64,000 nt of DNA, from the NCBI GenBank assembly GCA_964486745.1, contig CAZAOJ010000002.1, positions 2,958 through 66,957 on the forward strand, given 5' to 3'. The DNA comes from an uncultured Arcobacteraceae bacterium (lineage in GTDB: Bacteria; Campylobacterota; Campylobacteria; Campylobacterales; Arcobacteraceae). The translations under genes were made by a program, and so were the position numbers. Numbering within the stretch: the stretch's first letter is position 1; each line of letters opens with the position of its first letter. The notes under the pieces are model-generated. The model ran no database searches. It was not told the DNA's origin and saw only the letters and a list, made by a program, of their open reading frames with translations. Of the stretch, positions 49,038 through 63,313 are shown in pieces.

Positions 49038-49742
49038 TTATTTTGTTCTTTGAACTAGGTACATTCCAATTGCTTGAAGTTTTTTCCCTTTTATGTTTCC
49101 ACAAATTTTACTTTCTACTAAAAATGATTTAGCTTCAGCAGTAGATTCAAATGTTTTATTAGTTTTTTGACACATCTTTTTATACATCATAGCACCTTTT
49201 TTTATAGCTTTGGCTTGTCTTTTTTTAGTTGCAGCCATATCTTTTGCTAAAGATTTTTCTACCATTTTATATAGAGCATCAAATCTCATAATTTTCCCAC
49301 CATTTTGTGCAGCAAATTTTTCAGCTGCTTGTTTAGTACCAAACGCATATTTACTAACTACACTCATAGTTCCAGGTTTTTTACTACCTACTACAAAATA
49401 TGCATCTTTTGAATCTATAAATTTTAATGTTGTGTTATCAACTACTTTAAAATTTTCTAATTTTGTATTATTTACAACGGCATCTTGAATCATACAAACT
49501 ATTGAACAATAGTGCTTACCATGATTTTTATGTGTTGCTGCATGATTTGTTTTATAAAACATTGGTAATGTCATACCACATACAGGACAATACATCTTAT
49601 TTTTACCATCTTGTAGTATTGTTGCTTTTTCAACTGGCACCATTCTATAGTTTTTCATTGTTTTTTGCATTGGTTTATCCATTGCACTACTTATAACTAG
49701 TGAACCTAAAACTAATAGGCTAATTAATATTTTTTTCATCAT
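49038..49742 (-). CDS. periplasmic NosL/TRASH-like metal-chaperone paralog with C-terminal two-Cys module
   Basis: AAGGAG precedes ATGATG at 49742. Signal peptide MMKKILISLLVLGSLVISSA. CPVCGM-x24-C-x3-C. NosL-like core AYFVVGSKKPGTMS..SKYAFGTKQAAEKFAAQNGGKIMRFD. The tail has ...MYKKMC...SKICG... Confidence 0.75.
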   Translation of the reverse strand: MMKKILISLLVLGSLVISSAMDKPMQKTMKNYRMVPVEKATILQDGKNKMYCPVCGMTLPMFYKTNHAATHKNHGKHYCSIVCMIQDAVVNNTKLENFKVVDNTTLKFIDSKDAYFVVGSKKPGTMSVVSKYAFGTKQAAEKFAAQNGGKIMRFDALYKMVEKSLAKDMAATKKRQAKAIKKGAMMYKKMCQKTNKTFESTAEAKSFLVESKICGNIKGKKLQAIGMYLVQRTK

Positions 49743-49876
49743 TTCTCCTTTTGATATTTGAAACTCTAACAAATTATTGTTAATTAAATGTTAATTATTG
49801 ATAAAGATTAATAAATAATTAATAAAAAAGTGATAAGATTACTGAATAATTCTTAGAAAATGTTTGGAGCTTATTA

Positions 49877-51019
49877 ATGTATATAAAAAAGATATATATT
49901 GTATTGTGGATTTTATTTTTATCTACTAATATATATGGATATGAATTTACAAAAGTTGCAAAAACTAAGCCAATATTGATACAAGAAGGACAAAGTAAAT
50001 ATTGGTGTCCTGTATGTGGACACACTTTATCAAAATATTATAAAACAAATTATATAGCAAAACTTAAAAATGGAACCAAAAGACAATATTGTAGTCTAAG
50101 ATGTTTGGTTACTGATTTAAATAATTATGGTATAGATTTAAGTGCAGTAGCTGTGATTGATGCTAAAACAGAAAAGTTAATAAATGCTCATGATGCCTAT
50201 TTTGTAGTTGGTTCAAAAATAAATGGAACAATGAGTAAAAAAAGTAAATTAGCTTTTGCTTTAGAAAATGACGCTAAAAACTTTGTAAAACAATATAAGG
50301 GTAAAATTGTAGATTTTCAAGAAGCACTTAAAATGGCGCAAGACTCTTTAAAAATAGATAATAAAATACAAAAAAAACTAAAACAAAAAAAATTATATAA
50401 AATAGGTAAGAGAATTTTTAATAAAGTTTGTAATCAAGATATAGATATAGAGGATTATTTAGAGATAAATGAACTTAAATCTGCAATAGTAAATGAACAT
50501 CTATGTGAACCATTAAATTATAAGCAACTTCATGCTTTAGCATTGTACTTATGGGAAAAACAAGCATTAGGTGATGGTGAAGATATTGAGGGTAGGGTTG
50601 AAGTAACTACTGATGAAAAATGTCCTGTGTGTGGTATGTTTACATATAAATATCCAAAATGGGCAGCACAAATATTTTTTAAACATGATAACCATGAGCA
50701 TCATTATAGTTTTGATGGGGTAAAAGATATGATGAAATTTTATTTTAATCCTATGGCATGGGGAGACTATAAAAATAGTAAAAAAGAGAATATAACTAAG
50801 ATTTTAGTTACAGATTATTATTCTCAAAAAGCAATAGATGCTACAAAAGCATATTATGTAATAGGAAGTGATGTATATGGACCTATGGGAAATGAACTAA
50901 TACCTTTTGAAAATAAAGATGATGCAAATACCTTTAAAAATGACCATAGAGGTGAAAAAGTTATACAATTTGAGAATATATTAGAAGATGAAGTTTATAA
51001 ACTTGATACAGGAAAATAG
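49877..51019 (+). CDS. periplasmic double NosL-like protein (TRASH/NosL, two-Cys linker module, NosL)
   Basis: Signal peptide. Domain 1: CPVCGH-x25-C-x3-C, AYFVVGSKINGTMS...AFALENDAKNFVKQYKGKIVDF. Linker: IFNKVC...EHLCE. Domain 2: CPVCGM...AYYVIGSDVYGPMGNELIPFENKDDANTFKNDHRGEKVIQF. Confidence 0.78.
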   Translation: MYIKKIYIVLWILFLSTNIYGYEFTKVAKTKPILIQEGQSKYWCPVCGHTLSKYYKTNYIAKLKNGTKRQYCSLRCLVTDLNNYGIDLSAVAVIDAKTEKLINAHDAYFVVGSKINGTMSKKSKLAFALENDAKNFVKQYKGKIVDFQEALKMAQDSLKIDNKIQKKLKQKKLYKIGKRIFNKVCNQDIDIEDYLEINELKSAIVNEHLCEPLNYKQLHALALYLWEKQALGDGEDIEGRVEVTTDEKCPVCGMFTYKYPKWAAQIFFKHDNHEHHYSFDGVKDMMKFYFNPMAWGDYKNSKKENITKILVTDYYSQKAIDATKAYYVIGSDVYGPMGNELIPFENKDDANTFKNDHRGEKVIQFENILEDEVYKLDTGK

Positions 51020-51340
51020 ATGAATAAAAAAAGTCATTTTTTAATATATTTTATATTATTCTTGAGTTCTACTTTAATAGCACAAATTTTATATTTAAAT
51101 AGTGTCAAATCTAATACTAACGAACAATTAAAAAAGAAAAATCAATTTGTAAAGTTAGTGGGTCTTCCAGATTTAGCAATTTGTACAGAAGCTTCATATA
51201 TTAGACATAGAAGTTTAAGTGATTTAAGCTCTATTTATAAAGATGATTCAATATTAAGAGAATATTTTCCCTCTTCATATGCATATAATCATTCTGGTTT
51301 GTATAATAAAATATCTTCAAAGGTTGTAAATGTTAAGTAA
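51020..51340 (+). CDS. small N-terminally anchored membrane/periplasmic protein
   Basis: 106 aa with one N-terminal TM. Its start abuts the upstream stop, and it overlaps the downstream permease gene by 11 nt. Confidence 0.55.
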   Translation: MNKKSHFLIYFILFLSSTLIAQILYLNSVKSNTNEQLKKKNQFVKLVGLPDLAICTEASYIRHRSLSDLSSIYKDDSILREYFPSSYAYNHSGLYNKISSKVVNVK

Positions 51341-52517
51341 AATAAATCTATATTTAGTGCAATATGCCATTGGTTCCATATTAAGAGCTAAATACAAATC
51401 CCTTTTTATTACTATAATATTTACTTTTTTGACTTTTTTATTAACATCAATATTTTTTATATCTAATTCAATCAAATATGAACTAAATAGTACGGTTGAG
51501 TCTTTACCTCAAATTATTGTACAGAAAATAAAAGCAGGTCGTCAATATGATATTGAAGTAAATAATATAGAACAAATATTAGAATTAAATGGCGTAGTTG
51601 ATGCAGTTGCCAGAGTTTGGGGATATTATTATTTTGAAAATGCTGGAGTTAATTTTAGTATTGTTGGGCTTAATCAATATGAAACACAGTATAAAAAAAG
51701 TTTTACTAATATAGTTGAAAAATTTAATTTAGATAAATTAAGTAAAAATCCATCAATGGTAGTAGGACAGGGTGTATATAAAGTGTTAAATGACAACTAT
51801 TATACAAAATATTTTAATTTTATAAAACCTGATGGAACTTTTAAGCAAGTTGATATTGCTGGTATTTTTGATTCAAATATTCAATTAGAATCAAATGATG
51901 TTATAGTTTTACAACAAGATATAGCAAGACAAATTATGGGTATGCGTGAAGACATGGCAACTGATATTGTTGTAAAAGTTGCAAACCCAAAAGAGATATT
52001 AATGATAGCTTCTAAAATAAAATTGATGTTTCCTGATACTAGAGTTATTACAAATGAAGATTTAAAAGTGAGTTATGACAATATCTTTGATTATAAAAGT
52101 GGAATATTTTTAGCTTTATTTATTATAAGTTTATTTACATTTTTTATAATAATATATGATAAAAGCAGTGGTTTAAGTAGTGAAGAAAAAAGAGAGATTG
52201 GTATATTAAAAGCTGTGGGATGGACTGTAGATGATATATTAAAAGAAAAATTTTATGAAGCATTTATTATCTCATTTATTGCATATTTATTGGGTGTAAT
52301 ATTAGCTTTTACTTTTGTGTATATATTTCAAGCACCAATACTAAGAGATATATTTGTAGGATATTCACAATTAAAAACAACTTTTGAATTACCATTTATA
52401 TTTGATATACAAACATTGTTTTTAGTATTCTTTTTAAGTGTACCAATTTATATAGCTGCAACAATAATTCCATCTTGGAAAAGTGCGACTATTGAAACAG
52501 ATGAGGCGATAAGATAA
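51330..52517 (+). CDS. FtsX/MacB-type ABC transporter permease with large periplasmic domain
   Basis: 395 aa. TM1, a ~220-aa extracytoplasmic domain, then three C-terminal TMs containing the FtsX-like segment (EKREIGILKAVGW). Confidence 0.8.
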   Translation: MLSKINLYLVQYAIGSILRAKYKSLFITIIFTFLTFLLTSIFFISNSIKYELNSTVESLPQIIVQKIKAGRQYDIEVNNIEQILELNGVVDAVARVWGYYYFENAGVNFSIVGLNQYETQYKKSFTNIVEKFNLDKLSKNPSMVVGQGVYKVLNDNYYTKYFNFIKPDGTFKQVDIAGIFDSNIQLESNDVIVLQQDIARQIMGMREDMATDIVVKVANPKEILMIASKIKLMFPDTRVITNEDLKVSYDNIFDYKSGIFLALFIISLFTFFIIIYDKSSGLSSEEKREIGILKAVGWTVDDILKEKFYEAFIISFIAYLLGVILAFTFVYIFQAPILRDIFVGYSQLKTTFELPFIFDIQTLFLVFFLSVPIYIAATIIPSWKSATIETDEAIR

Positions 52518-53188
52518 TGATAAAATTAAAAAATATTACCAAAATATATCAAATGAATAAAAATGATAAAGTAATAGCTTTAAATAATATAAATTTACAC
52601 TTTAAAGAGGGTGAACTTATAGTCTTAAAAGGTTCAAGTGGTAGTGGAAAAAGTACTATACTATCTTTAATTGCAGCTTTAAGTAAACCTACTAGTGGTG
52701 AAGTAATTGTAGATGAAAAAAGAATTTCAAAGTTACCAGATAATTTTGCTGCATTATATAGACGAGAAAATATAGGCTTTGTATTTCAAAAATATAATTT
52801 AATACCAACTTTAAGCGTTAAAGATAATATTATACAGCCATTAATTCCAGCTAATCCTCCTGAAGATGAGTTAAAAGTAAAACTAGATAATGTAATGAAA
52901 AGATTTAGTATAGAGCATAAAAAAGATTTGATTGTTAGAAATTTATCTGGTGGAGAGCAACAAAGAGTTGCAATTGCAAGAGCTCATATAAATAATCCCA
53001 AAATTATAATTGCAGATGAACCAACAGCAAATTTAGATGAAAAGTTATCTTTAGATTTTATAAAAATCTTAAAACAATTAAAAGAATCAAATAAAACTAT
53101 AATAGTTGCAACTCATGACCCTTTATTTTTTGATTTAGATTTTGTTGATAAAGTTATAGAGATTTATAATGGGAATATTGTTGAATGA
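52517..53188 (+). CDS. ABC transporter ATP-binding protein (MacB/LolD-like)
   Basis: Walker A GSSGSGKST, Q-loop, signature LSGGEQQR, Walker B IIIADEPT, H-loop THD. Confidence 0.9.
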   Translation: MIKLKNITKIYQMNKNDKVIALNNINLHFKEGELIVLKGSSGSGKSTILSLIAALSKPTSGEVIVDEKRISKLPDNFAALYRRENIGFVFQKYNLIPTLSVKDNIIQPLIPANPPEDELKVKLDNVMKRFSIEHKKDLIVRNLSGGEQQRVAIARAHINNPKIIIADEPTANLDEKLSLDFIKILKQLKESNKTIIVATHDPLFFDLDFVDKVIEIYNGNIVE

Positions 53189-54144
53189 TTTTATCACCTG
53201 AAGTTATTTCTATATTAATACTTGATATAGTATTTGTATTTTTTGCATTAATTGCTTTTTATTTAAGTATTAGAATATCATTGTATTGGGATATAAATTC
53301 AACATCTAAGATGCAATATACACTTGAAAAACAAAGTTCATTAGCTGCAACTATTATAAAATATATATTTATTATAAAATTACCTTTATTTTTATTTTTT
53401 ATTTTTACTTTAGATAAAATATCTAATGTTTTAACTGGAGCAATGTGTGCAGCTGGAGTTGTTGATGCAACATCGTATGGTACATATCTATTTATTTTAA
53501 AGATTATAAATATATATTTATTTGGATATTGGTTAATGTTGCATTATTTAGATATAAAATATGAAAATTTACCATATGTCAAATTAAAATTTAGATTTTT
53601 TACTATAGCATTTTTTGTATTTATTAGTGAGATTATTCTTGAAATCTTGATGTTTTCATCTATTGATATATCAAAAATGGTAAGTTGTTGTGGAACTTTA
53701 TATTCAAGTTCAGCAACTTCTGTAATCTCTTCAATATTTTTGATACCTACATCAGTATTATTAAGTCTGTTTTATGGTATATTTTTGATGATGATATGTT
53801 TTTACTATTTAAAAAATAGATATATGTTTAGTATTATGAATTTTTTATTTATAATCGTATCAATAATAAGTCTTATATCATTTTTTGGTACATACATTTA
53901 TGAGTTACCAACTCATCATTGTCCATTTTGTTTTTTACAAAAAGATTACTATTATGTAGGGTATTTGATTTATACATTATTGTTTATTGGTACATTTTAT
54001 GGGATAAGTGTTGGAATTATAAAACAAAAAAATCAATATATTCAAAAAAAATTGAATATATCATTGATATTTAATTTATTGTATGTAATATTAGTAAGTG
54101 CATATCCACTTATTTATTATATAAAAAATGGTGTATGGTTATAA
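53185..54144 (+). CDS. polytopic (~8 TM) membrane protein with MCAAG, SCCG and HHCPFC motifs, unknown family
   Basis: 319 aa, very hydrophobic. Three Cys-containing motifs near predicted helix ends. Overlaps the ATPase gene by 4 nt. Confidence 0.6.
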   Translation: MILSPEVISILILDIVFVFFALIAFYLSIRISLYWDINSTSKMQYTLEKQSSLAATIIKYIFIIKLPLFLFFIFTLDKISNVLTGAMCAAGVVDATSYGTYLFILKIINIYLFGYWLMLHYLDIKYENLPYVKLKFRFFTIAFFVFISEIILEILMFSSIDISKMVSCCGTLYSSSATSVISSIFLIPTSVLLSLFYGIFLMMICFYYLKNRYMFSIMNFLFIIVSIISLISFFGTYIYELPTHHCPFCFLQKDYYYVGYLIYTLLFIGTFYGISVGIIKQKNQYIQKKLNISLIFNLLYVILVSAYPLIYYIKNGVWL

Positions 54145-54167
54145 ATTATAAGAAATAAAGAGGAAAT

Positions 54168-54623
54168 ATGAAAAAAATATTAATAAATAGTATTGTTAGT
54201 TTATCATTATGTTCAAATGTAGTAGCAAGTGAAGAGTTATCAATAAGACAGCAAGATGTATCACCGCAACAGCTTCAAAAACAAAATAAACAAGTGGTAA
54301 AATTAGCTGCACTTGAAGAATCAAAAAGTGTACCACAAAAAATTGATAAATATACAACTATTGTAGATATAAAGGCAAAAGACACTACATTAATTTATAC
54401 TTTTGAGATAAATACAGGTGTAAAAAGTGATGAAGCAATTATTAAAGAGGATCATTCACGAATGAAAAAAGCTGTTACTCAAGGTATTTGTAGAAGTTCA
54501 AAAAGATTTATGGATGCACAAATTACAAAAGTATATAGATATATTAGTGCTGTATCAAAAAAAGAATTATTTAAATTTGTTGTTAATCAAGATGTATGTT
54601 CAAAACTTAATAAGGATTATTAA
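54168..54623 (+). CDS. exported hypothetical protein
   Basis: 151 aa with a signal peptide (MKKILINSIVSLSLCSNVVAS) and two further Cys. No known motif. Confidence 0.55.
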   Translation: MKKILINSIVSLSLCSNVVASEELSIRQQDVSPQQLQKQNKQVVKLAALEESKSVPQKIDKYTTIVDIKAKDTTLIYTFEINTGVKSDEAIIKEDHSRMKKAVTQGICRSSKRFMDAQITKVYRYISAVSKKELFKFVVNQDVCSKLNKDY

Positions 54624-55063
54624 TGAGGATTTTTAGTTTTATATTTTTATTTATTATGTTATTTCTTTCTGGTTGTGAGCAAACCAAAAAAGATGGTGTA
54701 GCAAAAGTACACTGGGATAGAGATATGTGTGCTAGATGTGTGATGGTTGTTAGTGATAGAAAAAATACAGCTCAAACAAGAGATCCAAATACTGGTAAAG
54801 TATATATGTTTGATGATATAGGGTGTATGATACTTTGGTTCAAAGATGAACAAATACCTTGGAAAGATAAAGCCAAAATTTGGATAACAGATGTTAATTC
54901 AGGTGAGTGGATTGATGCAAGAACAGCGTTTTATGATACAACAAATATAACACCTATGGCATATGGATTTTCAGCCCATAAAACAAAAGATACTATTAAA
55001 GAAGGTGAAGAGATAGTTGATTTTAATGAGATGGCAAGAAGAGTTATAAAAATAGGAAAATAA
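54623..55063 (+). CDS. CxxCxM...DDxGCM lipoprotein (NosL-related, type 2)
   Basis: Lipobox LSGC. Motifs CARCVM, YMFDDIGCMILWFKD, TPMAYGFSAH. Paralog of 58195..58659. Confidence 0.7.
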   Translation: MRIFSFIFLFIMLFLSGCEQTKKDGVAKVHWDRDMCARCVMVVSDRKNTAQTRDPNTGKVYMFDDIGCMILWFKDEQIPWKDKAKIWITDVNSGEWIDARTAFYDTTNITPMAYGFSAHKTKDTIKEGEEIVDFNEMARRVIKIGK

Positions 55064-55065
55064 AC

Positions 55066-56274
55066 TTATTTTTTAAACATTAGTGGTTTTGTATCTTCAA
55101 TAAGAAGTGATGGTTCTATAAAAGGTGCTAGTTGTCCTAAAAAGTTTAATAAACTCATAATAGGACTAGCATAAAAAAATTTTACTTTTGGATTATAGTG
55201 CCATAGTTGATCAGCATATTGGTATATTCTATGTGTTGTATTACCTATATTATCTTTGTTTGAATCAAATCCTGTATAATAACTCCAATAATTGTATTGT
55301 ATAATATTTGTATTTGAGTAGTATCCCGCTAGATCTTTAACTATATCATCAATATTATTATCAAAAATATTATTTGTGATTGTATTATCTTTTATTGTTT
55401 GATGAAAATGAATAGCTTCTTTATTATATGAGATGGTATTGTTTGTAATATATCGTTTCATCCCTTTTGCTTTTTCACCACCATCTATATATATTGCCTT
55501 TGCATTAAATTTTAATATATTATGATCCAATACAAAATTGGATACACCACTAATTACTATTCCAATCCCAGCAGCGCCCTTTGAACTTAATATCTTATTA
55601 TTAGATACAATCATATCTTTTGCTCCCATAACCATGATAGCTACAGAGTTATGTTTATATGTATTGTGTTTTAATATATTATTATGACTATTTTGTATAT
55701 GTGTGGCAAATCTATTGTTTGTAAATCTATTGTTTGCGAATTTATTGTTATTGCTATAATTTAGTGTTATATCTCTTGAGTTATTAATAGTATTATTATT
55801 AAATATATTATTATTTGCATAATACAGCTTTAAAGCATTTCCTCTTAATGTAATATCAATATCTTTAGAGTTTATAAAGTTGTTTATAATTTTTGAATTA
55901 TTTACTATATTCATATCTATGCCATATAGATTATCTATAATTTTACAGTTTTGTATAGTGCAATTTGAAGAGTTATTTATAGATATACCAGCATCAATAC
56001 TCGTCATCATATTGCCACTATTTGTAATAGTTAAATTTTTTAAAATGACATTTGAGCTATTAATAGTAACTACACTATTTTTTTGTTCACCTTTTATAAT
56101 AACATTTGAATCTTTACCTAGTATAGTAAGTGGTTTATTTATAATTATATTTCCATTATAAATACCACTTGAGAGTTTAATTGTGGAGTAAGGTTTTGCT
56201 TTATTAATAGCTTTTTGTAAGCTATTAGAATAGGAAAAAGAGATAAAAATTAAAATTGATATAACTATTTTCAT
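55066..56274 (-). CDS. second NosD-family periplasmic parallel beta-helix protein (NosD2)
   Basis: 402 aa with signal peptide. Collinear with NosD at 62087..63313: AINKA...G.Y.GNI.INKPLT..GK, repeated N-rich beta-helix turns, and a near-identical tail YQYADQLW.YNP.VKFFY.SP..SLLNFL..LAPF. Confidence 0.8.
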   Translation of the reverse strand: MKIVISILIFISFSYSNSLQKAINKAKPYSTIKLSSGIYNGNIIINKPLTILGKDSNVIIKGEQKNSVVTINSSNVILKNLTITNSGNMMTSIDAGISINNSSNCTIQNCKIIDNLYGIDMNIVNNSKIINNFINSKDIDITLRGNALKLYYANNNIFNNNTINNSRDITLNYSNNNKFANNRFTNNRFATHIQNSHNNILKHNTYKHNSVAIMVMGAKDMIVSNNKILSSKGAAGIGIVISGVSNFVLDHNILKFNAKAIYIDGGEKAKGMKRYITNNTISYNKEAIHFHQTIKDNTITNNIFDNNIDDIVKDLAGYYSNTNIIQYNYWSYYTGFDSNKDNIGNTTHRIYQYADQLWHYNPKVKFFYASPIMSLLNFLGQLAPFIEPSLLIEDTKPLMFKK

Positions 56275-56303: not shown

Positions 56304-56828
56304 TTAATAAAACCTATGAATCTCTTCTAAAATATTAGCAAATTCCATATCATCACCTTTTTGCTTTAAAAATTCAGTTAGATATTTTTGGCTATCTTCT
56401 ATAGTTTTTGTTTTTTCTATCTCTAATAGTTCTTTGTATAAATCAGCTATAATCTCTATAGCATGTTTTGATATAGTTTTTCTTGATGCATGATATCCTA
56501 TAATTTTACCAGTATCAGTATCTTTTCTAATTTCAAACTCTGTAAATATCCAATAATATCGTCCATCTTTTGCAAGATTTTTAACTACGGCATTTATATT
56601 TTTACCTTGACTTATTGTTTCCCATAGTAATTTAAATACAACTTTTGGCATATCTGGATGTCTTACTATATTATGTGGTTTACCTATTAGTTCTTCTAGT
56701 GTATAACCTGATACTTCCATAAAATAATCATTAGCAAATGTAATTCTACCTTTTTCATCAGTTTCACTTACGATATATCGATTTGGATCTAATATTATCT
56801 CTTCATCTATTGGTGTTGGTTTAATCAT
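56304..56828 (-). CDS. stand-alone Aer/CetB-type PAS domain protein inside the nos operon
   Basis: VSETDEKGRITFANDYFMEVSGYTLEELIGKPHNIVRHPDMPKVVFKLLWETISQGK...GRYYWIF. Paralog of 41070..41513 with an additional C-terminal helical ~50 aa. Confidence 0.85.
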   Translation of the reverse strand: MIKPTPIDEEIILDPNRYIVSETDEKGRITFANDYFMEVSGYTLEELIGKPHNIVRHPDMPKVVFKLLWETISQGKNINAVVKNLAKDGRYYWIFTEFEIRKDTDTGKIIGYHASRKTISKHAIEIIADLYKELLEIEKTKTIEDSQKYLTEFLKQKGDDMEFANILEEIHRFY

Positions 56829-56839
56829 ATTTTATCCTT

Positions 56840-57346
56840 TTATATTCTACCATTTATAAGTCTAATTAATGCATCTTTTACTTCATCAAATTTAAATATT
56901 CTTTTTCCACTATATTTTTTTGCAAATGCTTTTGCATCATCTTCATTTCCAATTGCTACAAGATCATCCCCTGCAGGTGAAATTGCTCTACTTCCATATA
57001 TAAAGAATGCTTCTTTTGCATTAATTGGTTTCATTGTAATATAATCAGTTACAACAATATCTTTAAAGTCTTTTTCACTTTTAACACCTACATCATACCA
57101 TTTCCCAGGACGGTGATAAAATTCAAACATTGATTTTGGGCTTGAAAAATATACAGTCTTACCATTTTTAAGAGTAATTTTAGCTACCCATTTTGGATCT
57201 TTGTATACTTTGAAGTGTCGTACTAAACAGATTGTATCTTTTGTATAATCCATAGTGTATGTTTGTTTAACTTTTGGTGGTAATAAATTAGTAGCATGTA
57301 ATAATCCACTTAATAATATACCAACTAACAATATCTTTTTAATCAT
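56840..57346 (-). CDS. nosL: NosL-family accessory protein (lacks the CxxCGM motif)
   Basis: Signal peptide. NosL core AFFIYGSRAISPAGDDLVAIGNEDDAKAFAKKYSGKRIFKFDEV. Sits after nosY, as in Wolinella-type clusters. Confidence 0.72.
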   Translation of the reverse strand: MIKKILLVGILLSGLLHATNLLPPKVKQTYTMDYTKDTICLVRHFKVYKDPKWVAKITLKNGKTVYFSSPKSMFEFYHRPGKWYDVGVKSEKDFKDIVVTDYITMKPINAKEAFFIYGSRAISPAGDDLVAIGNEDDAKAFAKKYSGKRIFKFDEVKDALIRLINGRI

Positions 57347-57357
57347 TTTATAACTCC

Positions 57358-58185
57358 TTAAACTAAATCTTTCTTTTTAAATATATTAAAACCAAGATAT
57401 GAAAATACTAAACCAAGTGTAACAGGATAAAGTATTGATAATACTACAAAAGTTGATTGTTTCATAGAATCTAATATATAAAAGGCAACAGGACCCATAA
57501 CTGTAAGTTCTGGATCAAATAGTGAAATAGCTGCAACTCTAAATATCTCCATAGGATTTATCATTGCTATAAATATAATAAGTTGTTCATCAAATCTTTG
57601 TTGCATCATTAAAGATATAAGCGCTATATCAATAAATGCTAAAAGTGCAATCCATACAAAAAAAGCAATTCCTAGAGCAACTTCACTTGATTTTACAAAA
57701 GATGAAACAAAAAAAGCTATACCTAAAAATGCACTACTCATAGCAAATAAAAGTCCAGTATATAAAAAGAATATATTCCATGGTATATCAGCACCTTTAA
57801 TTGCTCCATAAACAATTGCAGCAATCATAGCAAATATTACAGGGATATATACAGTGATAAATCTTCCAATAATTTTACCCCAGTAATATTGTTTTAATGA
57901 GATTGGAAATGATAGCATATATTCTAATACATGACTATCTCTATCTCCAGAGATTGAACGCACTGTTGTAATAAGTATAAATATTGGTAATATTACAATT
58001 GTAATTTGTATATACATAAGTAGTAATCTACTTAATCCACTAAACCCCATTACTTGAGATTCTGTAACTCCAGCTATAAAAAATAAAGCTATAAGCCCAC
58101 CAAAAACCACTGAATAAACTAAAAACCATTTGGCTCTTATTGATTCTTTTAAATCTAAATATGAGATTAATAATAAATTATTCAT
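57358..58185 (-). CDS. nosY: NosY ABC-2-type permease
   Basis: 275 aa, 6 TM ABC-2 topology, nos context. Confidence 0.82.
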   Translation of the reverse strand: MNNLLLISYLDLKESIRAKWFLVYSVVFGGLIALFFIAGVTESQVMGFSGLSRLLLMYIQITIVILPIFILITTVRSISGDRDSHVLEYMLSFPISLKQYYWGKIIGRFITVYIPVIFAMIAAIVYGAIKGADIPWNIFFLYTGLLFAMSSAFLGIAFFVSSFVKSSEVALGIAFFVWIALLAFIDIALISLMMQQRFDEQLIIFIAMINPMEIFRVAAISLFDPELTVMGPVAFYILDSMKQSTFVVLSILYPVTLGLVFSYLGFNIFKKKDLV

Positions 58186-58194
58186 ATGTTTCCT

Positions 58195-58659
58195 CTAATA
58201 TCCTAATATTTGTTTTCTTATTTTTGGGTTTGCCATATGCTCACCTCTTAACATTCTAATTATTACTTCACCAAATTTTATGCAATCTTTACACGGTTTT
58301 TCATATGCAGAAAATCCGTATAACATTGGAGTTTTTTCATTAATTGTAAAATTTGCTTGAAATGGATCGATAAATTTTTTTGTATCATTTGTAAATATCT
58401 TGGCTTTTATATTTTTTAGATCAATTTTATTATCTTTTGCCCAAAGTATCATACATCCTACATCATCAAAATATACAGTACTACCATTCTCATCTAATTT
58501 TGATGTATTAATATTAGATTTTGGCAATGGCATATTGCATTGAGGACAAATATGTTGATCCTTTTTTGCTTGCTCATCTGTTTTTGGTTTTGATGATCCA
58601 CAGCCACTAATAATAAATGACAATAATATAGTAAAAAATAGTTTAATGAACAATTTCAT
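58195..58659 (-). CDS. CxxCxM...DDxGCM lipoprotein inserted between nosF and nosY
   Basis: Lipobox ISGC. Motifs CPQCNM, VYFDDVGCMILWAKD, TPMLYGFSAY. Overlaps the nosF 3' end by 17 nt. Confidence 0.7.
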   Translation of the reverse strand: MKLFIKLFFTILLSFIISGCGSSKPKTDEQAKKDQHICPQCNMPLPKSNINTSKLDENGSTVYFDDVGCMILWAKDNKIDLKNIKAKIFTNDTKKFIDPFQANFTINEKTPMLYGFSAYEKPCKDCIKFGEVIIRMLRGEHMANPKIRKQILGY

Positions 58660-62086: not shown

Positions 62087-63313
62087 CTAATTTGTTTTAT
62101 CTTGTTTTATTGATACAAGTGGTCTTTGATCTTCTAATAAAAATAGTGGTTTAGAAAATGGAGCTAATTTTGCTAAAAAATTTAATAGTGATATTACAGG
62201 AGATCCATAAAAAAATTTTACATCAGGATTATATATCCAAAGTTGATCAGCATATTGATAAACTCTATGTGGAGTATCTCCTATATTGTCATTATTCTTA
62301 TCAAACCCCTCATAGTTATCCCAATAGTTTTCTACTATTTCATTTTCGTTTGTTTTACTACCTCTACTATCATTTACAATATCTTCAATATTACCCATAA
62401 TAATGTTTTTCTTAATAATATTATTCTCACTTAAAGAGTGAAAATGCATAGCTTCACTATTATATAGAATTTTATTTCCAATTATCCAGTCATGAGTATC
62501 TGGTTCAAATGGACTTCTATCAATATAAAAACCTTGCGCACAGTATATAACTGTATTATTCTTAAGTGTAAAATTTGATACATCTTTAAGACCAATACCC
62601 ATACCAGTAGCTCCAAGTGAACTCTGCACTGTATTATTAGTTGCAATAGTGTCTTGTGAATACATAAAGAATATACCAACTGAATTATATTTGTAAGTAT
62701 TATTTCTAACTATATTTTTACCAGCATACATAAAGTGTAAAGAATATCTATTATATTCCCCATAGTTTTCCTCAATAATATTACCATGAGAATACCATAC
62801 AACCATATCTCTTGATTTTTTTAATGTATTTTTCTTGATTAGATTATCATTACTATACCAAAGTCTAAGTCCATCACCTCTTAATCCTAAATCTACATCT
62901 TTTGATGTGATATTATTATTTGAGACAATAGAATTATTTACCATTTGTAAATCAATACCGAATAAACAATCTTTTATAGTACAGTTGCTAATTTCATTTT
63001 GTTTTCCATCACTTAGTTTGATAGCAGAATCAAGATTTTCATGTCTATCACCGCTGTTTATTATAGTTAAATTTTTTAATGTTATATATGAACCTTTTGC
63101 TACTATTACAGTACCTTTATTTTGCCCATCAATAATAACACTATCACTTTTTCCTATGATTGTAAGAGGTTTATTAATAGTAATATTACCTTTGTATACT
63201 CCAGCAGGAAGTTTAAGAATAGATCCTGCTGGTGCTTTATTTATAGCATCTTGCAATATATTTGCATCTGCATAGATAAAACATAAAAAACTAATAATTA
63301 AACTTCTTAACAC
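62087..63313 (-). CDS. nosD: NosD periplasmic copper-handling beta-helix protein
   Basis: 408 aa, signal peptide, parallel beta-helix repeats, position after nosB. Confidence 0.85.
   Translation of the reverse strand: MLRSLIISFLCFIYADANILQDAINKAPAGSILKLPAGVYKGNITINKPLTIIGKSDSVIIDGQNKGTVIVAKGSYITLKNLTIINSGDRHENLDSAIKLSDGKQNEISNCTIKDCLFGIDLQMVNNSIVSNNNITSKDVDLGLRGDGLRLWYSNDNLIKKNTLKKSRDMVVWYSHGNIIEENYGEYNRYSLHFMYAGKNIVRNNTYKYNSVGIFFMYSQDTIATNNTVQSSLGATGMGIGLKDVSNFTLKNNTVIYCAQGFYIDRSPFEPDTHDWIIGNKILYNSEAMHFHSLSENNIIKKNIIMGNIEDIVNDSRGSKTNENEIVENYWDNYEGFDKNNDNIGDTPHRVYQYADQLWIYNPDVKFFYGSPVISLLNFLAKLAPFSKPLFLLEDQRPLVSIKQDKTN

Follow-up and report, generated by a model that had tools for sequence, protein, structure and literature searches.

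A five-gene module that couples a type VII ABC system to NosL-type chaperones and a cysteine-motif membrane protein, with a proposed role in periplasmic copper handling

A step yet to be explained in the biogenesis of N2O reductase, an enzyme that is, to our knowledge, the sole biological sink for the greenhouse gas N2O, is how NosL and other periplasmic chaperones obtain their Cu(I). This question of Cu(I) supply also bears on copper homeostasis in sulfidic, copper-poor habitats. Among described systems, NosDFY–NosL (structures 7osf–7osj and 7znq from P. stutzeri and 7og7 from S. denitrificans) combines a NosL-fold chaperone, with its CxxCxM stretch and Met loop, with an ATP-binding cassette (ABC) ATPase and permease that work in the periplasm and perform no transmembrane transport. 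Here, we analyze a locus that shares these features and lies in the same neighborhood as the nos genes of its host. It is contained in a window, the whole 64,000-nucleotide (nt) stretch of DNA analyzed, from an uncultured Arcobacteraceae bacterium (assembly GCA_964486745.1, contig CAZAOJ010000002.1; coordinates are relative to the window), and consists of seven open reading frames (ORFs), G1 to G7, arranged head to tail on the + strand at positions 49877–55063. Close relatives of the window sequence are Sulfurimonas/Sulfurovum-type Campylobacterota.

Three other kinds of systems are informative for comparison. Members of the type VII ABC superfamily (LolCDE–LolA, MacAB–TolC, FtsEX–EnvC, YbbAP–TesA, HrtBA, and BceAB) have permeases with four transmembrane (TM) segments and a periplasmic domain. 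In every characterized member that we know of, ATP moves the periplasmic domain and cargo is extracted or pushed at the outer face of the inner membrane. CopC–CopD (YcnJ), MerP–MerT, and CusF–CusCBA share another logic, in which a small periplasmic carrier of Cu(I) or Hg(II) exchanges its metal with a thiol- or Met-lined membrane protein. The nearest architectural analogue found in the literature is the FetMP–FetABCDEF cluster of C. jejuni (PMC10783030, PMC6083913), which encodes the metal-binding protein P19/FetP, the 8-TM Cys-rich protein FetA, the ABC system FetBCD, and thioredoxins; its authors call the role of FetA and FetBCD unknown (PMC10783030).

The locus in the window contains a type VII ABC system coupled to metallochaperones and to a membrane-protein family that lacks described relatives. 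G1 (49877–51019) encodes a protein with a signal peptide and two Pfam NosL domains, G2 (51020–51340) a small bitopic protein with an N-terminal anchor, G3 (51330–52517) an FtsX-type permease, G4 (52517–53188) an ABC ATPase of the type found in FtsE, LolD, and the nucleotide-binding domain of MacB, and G5 (53185–54144) an 8-TM membrane protein with Cys motifs. These are followed by G6 (54168–54623), encoding a secreted protein of 151 amino acids (aa), and G7 (54623–55063), encoding a predicted NosL-fold lipoprotein. The junctions from G1 to G7, as calculated from the coordinates, are 0, −11, −1, −4, +23, and −1 nt, which reproduces exactly the seven translationally coupled ORFs of the preliminary description of this locus. 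No terminator-like hairpin is present inside the G1–G7 block; the one such hairpin is located outside of it. A sigma-70 promoter scan yielded 71 matches versus 70.5 expected in DNA this rich in AT (G+C of the window is low, about 23–34%).

Conservation of the locus was assessed across loci carrying relatives of G5 (labeled L001 and onward). Twenty-eight loci, all from Campylobacterota, were taken from GTDB genomes; 80 metagenome loci, mostly on unclassified contigs, were collected with an alignment of Desulfobacterota-type G5 proteins; and additional contexts came from Desulfonema ishimotonii, a metagenome-assembled genome (MAG) of Geobacteraceae, Nitrosophilus kaiyonis, and a large Joint Genome Institute (JGI) contig. 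Gene order was compared by ORF clustering and tblastn, and neighborhoods were counted for loci with at least 4 kb of flank (26 of Campylobacterota and 28 with Desulfobacterota-type G5 relatives). A single order recurs in Campylobacterota and Desulfobacterota (Desulfonema and Geobacteraceae): NosL, as one two-domain or two single-domain genes, followed by the small anchored protein, FtsX, ABC, and G5. The ABC gene is immediately upstream of G5 in 76 of 82 assessable loci, and upstream of G5 are also an FtsX gene (55 of 65), a gene for a small G2-type protein (53 of 65), and a NosL gene (41 of 52). Its recurrence in unrelated lineages rules out a chance pattern of ORFs. Even the 4-nt overlap of the ABC and G5 genes is found in the Desulfonema, Geobacteraceae, and JGI loci, suggesting co-translation into a complex.

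The conserved block consists of this five-gene core rather than of the seven genes originally taken as the unit; G6–G7 is a two-gene local accessory. Homologues of G6 occur only in L001–L003, L031, and L032, which are close relatives of the window. Of the 26 Campylobacterota loci, 14 have a G7 homologue after G5, whereas the Desulfobacterota-type group has none. The two genes are also separable from the core, as in L032 the G6–G7 pair is ∼5.5 kb from the core and ∼2 kb from a NosD-like gene. When G5 was used in a tblastn search of 72,556 plasmids, there was no match and hence no sign of a mobile metal-resistance island.

The NosL proteins of the core have features expected of copper chaperones. 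G1 matches its NosL domains at an E value of 1e−51 and has no lipobox. It also matches chains of solved NosL structures (7og7 and 7osf), with the copper ligand residues in place in the alignment of domain 2, which has CPVCGM and GPMG; domain 1 has CPVCGH, in which His replaces the first Met. Across loci, module NosLs are nearly all secreted and without a lipobox, and almost all have CxxCGM; in those of other lineages, C38, C41, and M43 are each present in at least 90% of sequences. In NosL of S. denitrificans, Cys62, Met64, and Met145 serve as strictly conserved Cu(I) ligands that are essential for loading of N2O reductase, while Cys59 of the same CxxCxM stretch binds structural Zn (PMC8457098). 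Some NosL homologues are located outside of nos clusters (PMC8457098). Based on its motifs, G1 is predicted to be the periplasmic Cu(I) chaperone of the core, and retention of CxxCxM and the Met loop across the NosL-type proteins agrees with their initial description as NosL-like donors.

G3 and G4 belong to the type VII ABC superfamily and to none of its characterized subfamilies. Residues 263–389 of G3 match FtsX (PF02687; E value of 2.2e−13, 50.7 bits, cutoff of 25.5), and many close homologues of G3 also match MacB_PCD. The AlphaFold2 (AF2) model of G3 has helices at residues 22–58, 242–279, 300–345, and 360–394, and a beta-rich periplasmic region (62–241) between TM1 and TM2. Comparisons of the model to the PDB with Foldseek identified LolE (9rlc_E, 7.8e−13), MacB (5gko, 1.6e−10), and Spr0694/0695 (5xu1), as well as LolC, YtrF, HrtB, BceB, FtsX, and YbbP, with values ranging from 1e−12 to 1e−5. 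Profile and fold thus concur with the proposal of an FtsX/MacB-type permease. G4 matches ABC_tran (8e−37), FtsE (6e−57), LolD (2e−55), and MacB (4e−51), and its gene overlaps that of G3 by 1 nt. By homology, mechanotransmission or extraction at the outer leaflet or outer face would be expected of G3 and G4. The periplasmic domain of G3 has no conserved Cys, His, or Met, suggesting that G3 itself probably binds no metal.

The similarity to Lol and MacB systems raises the possibility that G3 and G4 are ordinary members of a lipoprotein-release, peptide or macrolide efflux, or FtsEX system and that their NosL neighbors are incidental. Sources annotate G3 as an "ABC-type lipoprotein release transport system permease," the best NCBIfam matches of the pair are LolCE, LolD, FtsE, and MacB, the top structures are LolE and LolC, and G7 is a lipoprotein. 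But scores are far under all equivalog cutoffs. LolCDE was rejected because G3 scores 43 bits to LolCE (cutoff of 362), G4 scores 188 bits to LolD (cutoff of 308), and core NosLs lack a lipobox. MacAB–TolC was rejected because scores to MacB are 17 bits for G3 and 174 for G4 relative to a cutoff of 966, and the block has no gene encoding an HlyD-type or other membrane fusion protein (MFP); the MFPs at other loci belong to adjacent CusBA-like pumps of the RND family. FtsE likewise falls short for G4, at 193 versus 265 bits. Moreover, no MacA-type adaptor, EnvC, or LolA partner is encoded in the block, core NosLs are soluble, the distribution is patchy and unlike that of a housekeeping system, and the genes are locked together with NosL, G2, and G5 across Campylobacterota and Desulfobacterota. 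We therefore consider ordinary membership very improbable, indeed essentially excluded, and with it the known lipoprotein-release or peptide-efflux system that the preliminary description had entertained as the case against its proposal. What separates the module from known type VII systems are its partners, NosL, an ∼100-aa anchored protein, and a Cys-rich 8-TM protein, and its presumed metal cargo.

In three loci, L008 (∼8.3–9.3 kb), L027, and L032 (8191–9261), the FtsX and ABC genes are split by one or two inserted genes and their usual 1-nt overlap is broken. One of the inserted genes encodes a protein with an ORF6N domain, and the insertions of L008 and L027 include 238-aa and 335-aa ORFs. 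These may be mobile or toxin–antitoxin-like insertions.

G5 represents a membrane-protein family without described relatives. Its AF2 model (pLDDT of 84, pTM of 0.80) has eight helices and places the motifs MCAAG (residues 87–91), SCCG (167–170), and HHCPFC (244–249) in the TM2–3, TM4–5, and TM6–7 loops, respectively. All three motifs are present as first described, and their family-wide forms are GAMC88AxG, SC168C169G, and YELPTH244xC246PFC249. Residue conservation was assessed over 34 diverse members, among which Q44, A86, M87, C88, G91, W116, D123, C168, C169, P242, P247, F248, and G259 are invariant, H244 and C246 are nearly invariant, and a few have Asp, Asn, or Gly instead of C249. Lys and Arg are more numerous in the four remaining short loops than in the Cys loops (8.2 vs. 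4.0 per sequence), and the positive-inside rule predicts that the Cys loops and both termini are periplasmic.

Searches for families, folds, and repeats related to G5 were negative. No Pfam or NCBIfam family matches G5, and for the 34 diverse relatives, searches of Pfam at E values up to 5 gave scattered single matches, such as VKOR in 1 of 34 and DUF3262 in 2 of 34. No relative in fold was found in the PDB with Foldseek and the AF2 model (best E value of 1.3). Comparisons with hhalign, of the four 2-TM hairpins and of the N-terminal half to the C-terminal half, revealed no internal repeat (probabilities ≤5%). In a collection clustered at 90% identity, G5 has ∼1,950 relatives, all unnamed or labeled hypothetical and none with a Pfam domain; the family forms 830 clusters at 50% identity (E value ≤1e−3). 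The preliminary description had recognized that this protein has no counterpart in NosDFYL, and it has none in Pfam, NCBIfam, or the PDB either. As candidates, CopD, MerT/MerC, and FetA (PF05425 and PF10080) were rejected for want of a family match to G5 or any of its 34 relatives at E values up to 5.

These comparisons also set the module apart from systems with a similar layout. Like the module, the Fet cluster combines a periplasmic metal-binding protein with an 8-TM Cys-rich protein, an ABC system, and in some cases thioredoxins in epsilonproteobacterial hosts. But FetA has DUF2318 and YHS domains and G5 has neither according to Pfam, so that the two are set apart by domain content. The Fet cluster also has two permease genes, a link to an Ftr1-type iron permease, and iron regulation, whereas the module is linked to NosL and copper genes. 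Similarly, G5 has no relation in sequence or fold to CopD, MerT, or CusF, and of the module and the systems to which these proteins belong, only the module has an ABC motor.

The cysteines of G5 could instead indicate a thiol-disulfide oxidoreductase, similar to DsbB or VKOR, that works with the ABC system to keep NosL or client cysteines in the proper redox state. CPFC is a CxxC at the start of a short helix and, like the vicinal CC pair and further Cys, is predicted to be periplasmic; the VKOR match in 1 of 34 members, although weak, has an E value of 0.015; a gene for a ResA/DsbE-like thioredoxin adjoins the Geobacteraceae locus; and a redox role was proposed for the analogous Fet cluster of C. 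jejuni (PMC10783030). However, the second Cys of the CxxC is the one replaced in a few members while C88, C168, and C169 are invariant, a pattern more in keeping with metal ligands than with a CxxC whose redox function is obligatory. In addition, G5 has no conserved cytoplasmic Cys for electron input, thioredoxin neighbors are rare, and there is no consistent Pfam signal. Candidates of the DsbB, VKOR, and DsbD–CcdA types were rejected on these patterns and because neither HMMs nor folds in the PDB match. A role in thiol redox is therefore quite improbable.

Two loci, L055 (10001–16321) and L100 (7167–13480), have G5 without ABC, FtsX, or NosL genes, have multicopper-oxidase-like genes upstream, and have G5 directly upstream of and co-oriented with CusB/CusA-like genes. 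They suggest that G5 can partner a Cu efflux pump on its own, without the rest of the module.

G2 has no family in Pfam or NCBIfam. Proteins of this class have ∼100 aa; a single hydrophobic segment at the N terminus is followed by a ∼60-aa periplasmic tail that carries the motif L[PT]DL..(T)EA.YTRH ... LEHFPSGS. In both lineage groups, D51 and R62 are invariant, 97% of sequences have H63, and D68, E81, and P84 are each present in at least 90%.

Genomic neighborhoods link the module to copper in two independent ways. In Campylobacterota, a nos cluster adjoins the module in 8 of 26 loci, and in the remaining 18 the neighbors are two-component systems, TonB–ExbBD, a TonB-dependent receptor, DsbD_2-type proteins, a Crp/Fnr regulator, and unrelated genes. 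Among Desulfobacterota-type relatives of G5, 17 of 28 loci have copper genes nearby. These encode an RND pump of the CusA/CzcA family (TIGR00914, 1e−226), a CusB-like adaptor carrying HMBD, or both (15 loci); a multicopper oxidase with a twin-arginine translocation signal (8 loci); and YtkA (3 loci). At the first position of the charge-relay motif in TM4 (AIG...D...EN), Ala takes the place of Asp in all 13 RND pumps, a feature that we take to mark the monovalent Cu(I)/Ag(I) type in the heavy-metal efflux RND classification of Nies. In L038, L044, and L048, CusB/CusA-like genes come directly after the module and in its orientation, and with the module so often in an operon with such genes, NosL could play a CusF-like role. 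The nos context in Campylobacterota and the Cus, multicopper oxidase, and YtkA context in the other group both point to copper, which independently strengthens the copper link first suggested from the window. Hence, of the expectation that the block would be conserved and linked to nos or copper genes elsewhere, a conserved, copper-linked five-gene core is upheld, but seven genes and a linkage to nos are not general.

The module is not specific to N2O reductase. It differs from NosDFY–NosL in several respects: the permease is of the FtsX/MacB type (type VII) whereas NosY is of the ABC-2 type, the core lacks the NosD beta-helix protein, G2 and G5 have no counterparts in NosDFYL, its NosLs are soluble whereas the canonical NosL is a lipoprotein, and it is not confined to loci carrying nos genes. 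Membership in NosDFY was rejected because the core has neither NosD nor an ABC-2 permease. No described system was found in a literature search on the module, from whose coverage most subscription journals were absent, and the preliminary description had recognized none; literature on COG4314/PF05573 does not describe the module.

It could nevertheless be argued that the locus encodes a dedicated second machine for maturation of N2O reductase, one that loads NosD2 (the product of the gene next to G7) or NosZ with Cu, or Cu and sulfide, via G7 and G1. The block in the window is flanked by nap and nos, with its end 2 nt away from the gene of a bona fide NosD paralogue, a paralogue of G7 is encoded inside the nos operon, the module and nos are adjacent in eight Campylobacterota loci, and in five Sulfurimonas loci G7 is followed by the gene of a Crp/Fnr-type regulator. 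But most Campylobacterota loci (18 of 26) are not beside nos, and the modules of Desulfonema, Geobacteraceae, and many metagenome relatives are beside Cus, multicopper oxidase, YtkA, or unrelated genes. Furthermore, NosD2 adjacency is confined to the window and two relatives; it is seen in the window, the only contig with NosD2 at this very place, and in L031, and in L032 a NosD-like gene is near the displaced G6–G7 pair. The core itself never includes a NosD-like beta-helix protein. We consider a dedicated N2O-reductase machine unlikely, and a parallel NosDFYL that feeds NosD2, as first proposed, would be at most a local specialization.

We lean, by a modest degree of confidence, toward interpreting the five-gene core as a module that hands off Cu(I), or less probably another soft metal ion, on the periplasmic side of the cytoplasmic membrane. 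We infer that G5 binds Cu(I) and that the five proteins form one complex. The thiolates of G5, together with His244 and Met87, would face the periplasm and bind Cu(I) with high affinity at the surface of the membrane. The type VII motor would be formed by G3 and G4, in which hydrolysis of ATP in the cytoplasm moves the periplasmic domain and no substrate is carried across the membrane. In concert with G2, this motion would power Cu(I) transfer between G5 and soluble NosL chaperones, represented here by G1. An exposed histidine of a partner protein has been proposed to function in the release of Cu from NosL (PMC8457098), and the conserved Arg–His of G2 could act as such a histidine. From the NosL chaperones, Cu(I) would then go to clients encoded nearby. 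In the window, these may be the N2O-reductase assembly line (NosD/NosL/NosZ), possibly reached via G7 and NosD2; elsewhere they may be Cus-type efflux pumps or multicopper oxidases.

The direction of transfer is held with clearly less confidence than the hand-off itself. By analogy with characterized type VII systems, an outward direction, from membrane site to periplasmic carrier, would be favored. More tentatively, and with doubt prevailing, the core might be an unrecognized type VII class with a metal ion as cargo, one in which ATP-driven motion of the MacB-like periplasmic domain strips Cu(I) from G5, a thiolate-lined protein of a new fold family, to load soluble NosLs. It would so constitute the missing upstream source of Cu(I) for NosL-dependent assembly of periplasmic enzymes (N2O reductase and multicopper oxidases) and for detoxification by Cus in anaerobic and microaerophilic bacteria.

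The opposite direction is that of an importer of Cu(I) or another soft metal, with NosL as binding protein, G5 as membrane pathway, and the ABC system as energizer, for supply of cuproproteins of the cytoplasm or membrane when copper is scarce. Hosts live in sulfidic, copper-poor settings, and the layout of a periplasmic chaperone and an 8-TM partner recalls CopC/CopD and MerP/MerT. In L035, genes for a two-component system and exbB–exbD–tonB precede the module in a single orientation, and a TonB-dependent receptor is encoded nearby in L031. The L031 receptor, however, is outside the TonB-copper subtype, having matched only generic siderophore/heme receptor models and not the copper-receptor subtype. 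The conserved soft ligands of G5 are confined to a single set of loops and do not continue as a ladder across the membrane or on its cytoplasmic face, and frequent fusion into operons with Cus-type efflux genes fits export or detoxification better. We also know of no characterized type VII ABC system that moves a substrate inward through its own membrane domain. Import is therefore decidedly unlikely.

Several observations weigh against the Cu(I) hand-off interpretation. The TonB–ExbBD genes beside the L035 module and the TonB-dependent receptor near that of L031 fit uptake. Metal specificity is read from two sources, NosL homology and neighboring genes; solved NosL holds Zn too (PMC8457098), and Ag, Hg, Cd, or Au could also occupy a Cys-rich site. 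The predicted orientation of G5 has the positive-inside rule as its single basis, and the Cys loops at 172–177 and 240–244 are low-confidence parts of the model. Confidence in the G3 model is moderate (pLDDT of 64). Lastly, L004, L006, L016, L017, L055, and L100 have only ABC and G5 or G5 alone, implying that G5 can work, or decay, without the full set.

The accessory genes provide a possible connection between the module and nos. G6 has a signal peptide and no family in Pfam or NCBIfam. G7, first listed apart from the NosL-like proteins as a CxxCxM lipoprotein, is by profile comparison a divergent NosL lipoprotein. Its match to Pfam NosL is below threshold (E value of 2e−4, 22.2 bits, cutoff of 24), and its profile aligns to those of module NosLs in hhalign with 98% probability (E value of 1.5e−13). 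G7 has the lipobox LSGC, CARCVM (CxxCxM), DDIGCM, and TPMAYG, in agreement with the CxxCxM and DDxGCM motifs reported initially, and the lipobox Cys, CxxCxM, FDDxGC, and TPMxYGF are conserved features of its family. Its paralogue in the nos operon, a 154-aa lipoprotein encoded between nosF and nosY (58195–58659, − strand), falls in the same cluster (39% identity, E value of 9e−26) and has a lipobox and the motifs ICPQCNM, FDDVGCM, and TPMLYGF. This position between nosF and nosY is kept in all nos-linked loci. The nos-operon NosL of 168 aa (56840–57346, − strand; Pfam NosL E value of 2e−17) lacks CxxCxM and the Met loop and has none of the three Cu ligands. The functional Cu chaperone of the clade-II nos cluster may be the 154-aa protein rather than the 168-aa NosL.

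The surroundings of the block are as reported before, between nap and nos, with a NosD paralogue 2 nt away and a divergent NosL. Upstream are napA, napG, napH, and napB. Downstream is a clade-II-type nos accessory cluster on the − strand. The stop codon of the convergent gene for NosD2 (55066–56274; TIGR04247 at 332 bits, cutoff of 300; Pfam NosD and Beta_helix) is 2 nt from the end of G7, and the protein is 49% identical to the nos-operon NosD (NosD1; 62087–63313, − strand). NosD2 is followed by genes for a small PAS-domain protein (56304–56828, − strand), NosL, NosY (57358–58185, − strand; ABC2_membrane), the 154-aa lipoprotein, NosF, and NosH, then by two small cytochrome-like genes, NosG, NosD1, and a NosB-like gene. 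NosD2 and the PAS gene form an appendage to the nos operon; most related nos clusters have PAS and not NosD2, and in L031, NosD2 is between NosL and PAS.

The divergent NosL-like protein is encoded on the − strand at 49038–49772 (Pfam NosL E value of 4e−15), is secreted, and has YCPVCGM, YCSIVC, and also GTMS. It is called as 233 aa in the public contig, and its true start is probably at the MMKK codons ∼33 nt inside the ORF. Relatives are encoded beside the module in L008, L020, L022, L027, and L030, divergently in L020, L022, and L030 and co-oriented in L008 and L027. Both its C-terminal ∼80 residues and residues ∼155–235 of G1 (window positions 50340–50590) form a helical extension with two conserved Cys (e.g. 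GKRIFNKVC ... HLCEP). This extension has no match in Pfam and resembles a remnant of the start motif of a class I cytochrome c without heme. In several Sulfurimonas loci, a single-domain module NosL of 218 aa starts with the two-Cys segment.

Variation in other loci hints at additional associations. In five Sulfurimonas loci away from nos (L007, L008, L011, L014, and L027), the Crp/Fnr regulator (210 aa; cNMP_binding and HTH_Crp_2) follows G7 together with an amidohydrolase. These regulators recall the Nss regulators of N-oxide respiration in Wolinella. Upstream of the module of L031 (1–6606), which is in a complete Sulfurimonas-like chromosome, is a gene for a 918-aa fusion with NapH/NosR-like Fer4_5, NosL, and DUF4198 domains, and the region also encodes two DsbD_2-type proteins, the TonB-dependent receptor, a two-component system, and a membrane-anchored G7/NosL-like protein. 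The upstream genes may represent a second kind of NosL-centered membrane system. A few kb upstream of the module in L034 (1625–6022), a Geobacteraceae MAG, and in L036 (1–2232), an unclassified JGI metagenome contig, are genes for proteins of ∼1,300–1,470 aa with a weak multicopper-oxidase domain, which we take to be reminiscent of OmpB and OmpC, the outer-surface multicopper proteins of Geobacter.

The module is widespread and sharply delimited and bears on the supply or removal of periplasmic Cu(I) at redox interfaces. If the interpretation is correct, it would join Lol, MacAB, FtsEX, and the YbbAP/Hrt-like extractors as a fifth functional class among type VII ABC systems, and a role would be assigned to a family of more than 800 sequence clusters whose members are now annotated as "hypothetical protein." By analogy to FetABCD, a Cys-rich 8-TM protein and an FtsX-type ABC system may be paired as a general design for handling metals in the periplasm. 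For Sulfurimonas, Sulfurovum, Arcobacteraceae, Geobacteraceae, and Desulfobacterota, the groups that dominate redox interfaces, the module would likewise offer a path by which copper is supplied or detoxified.

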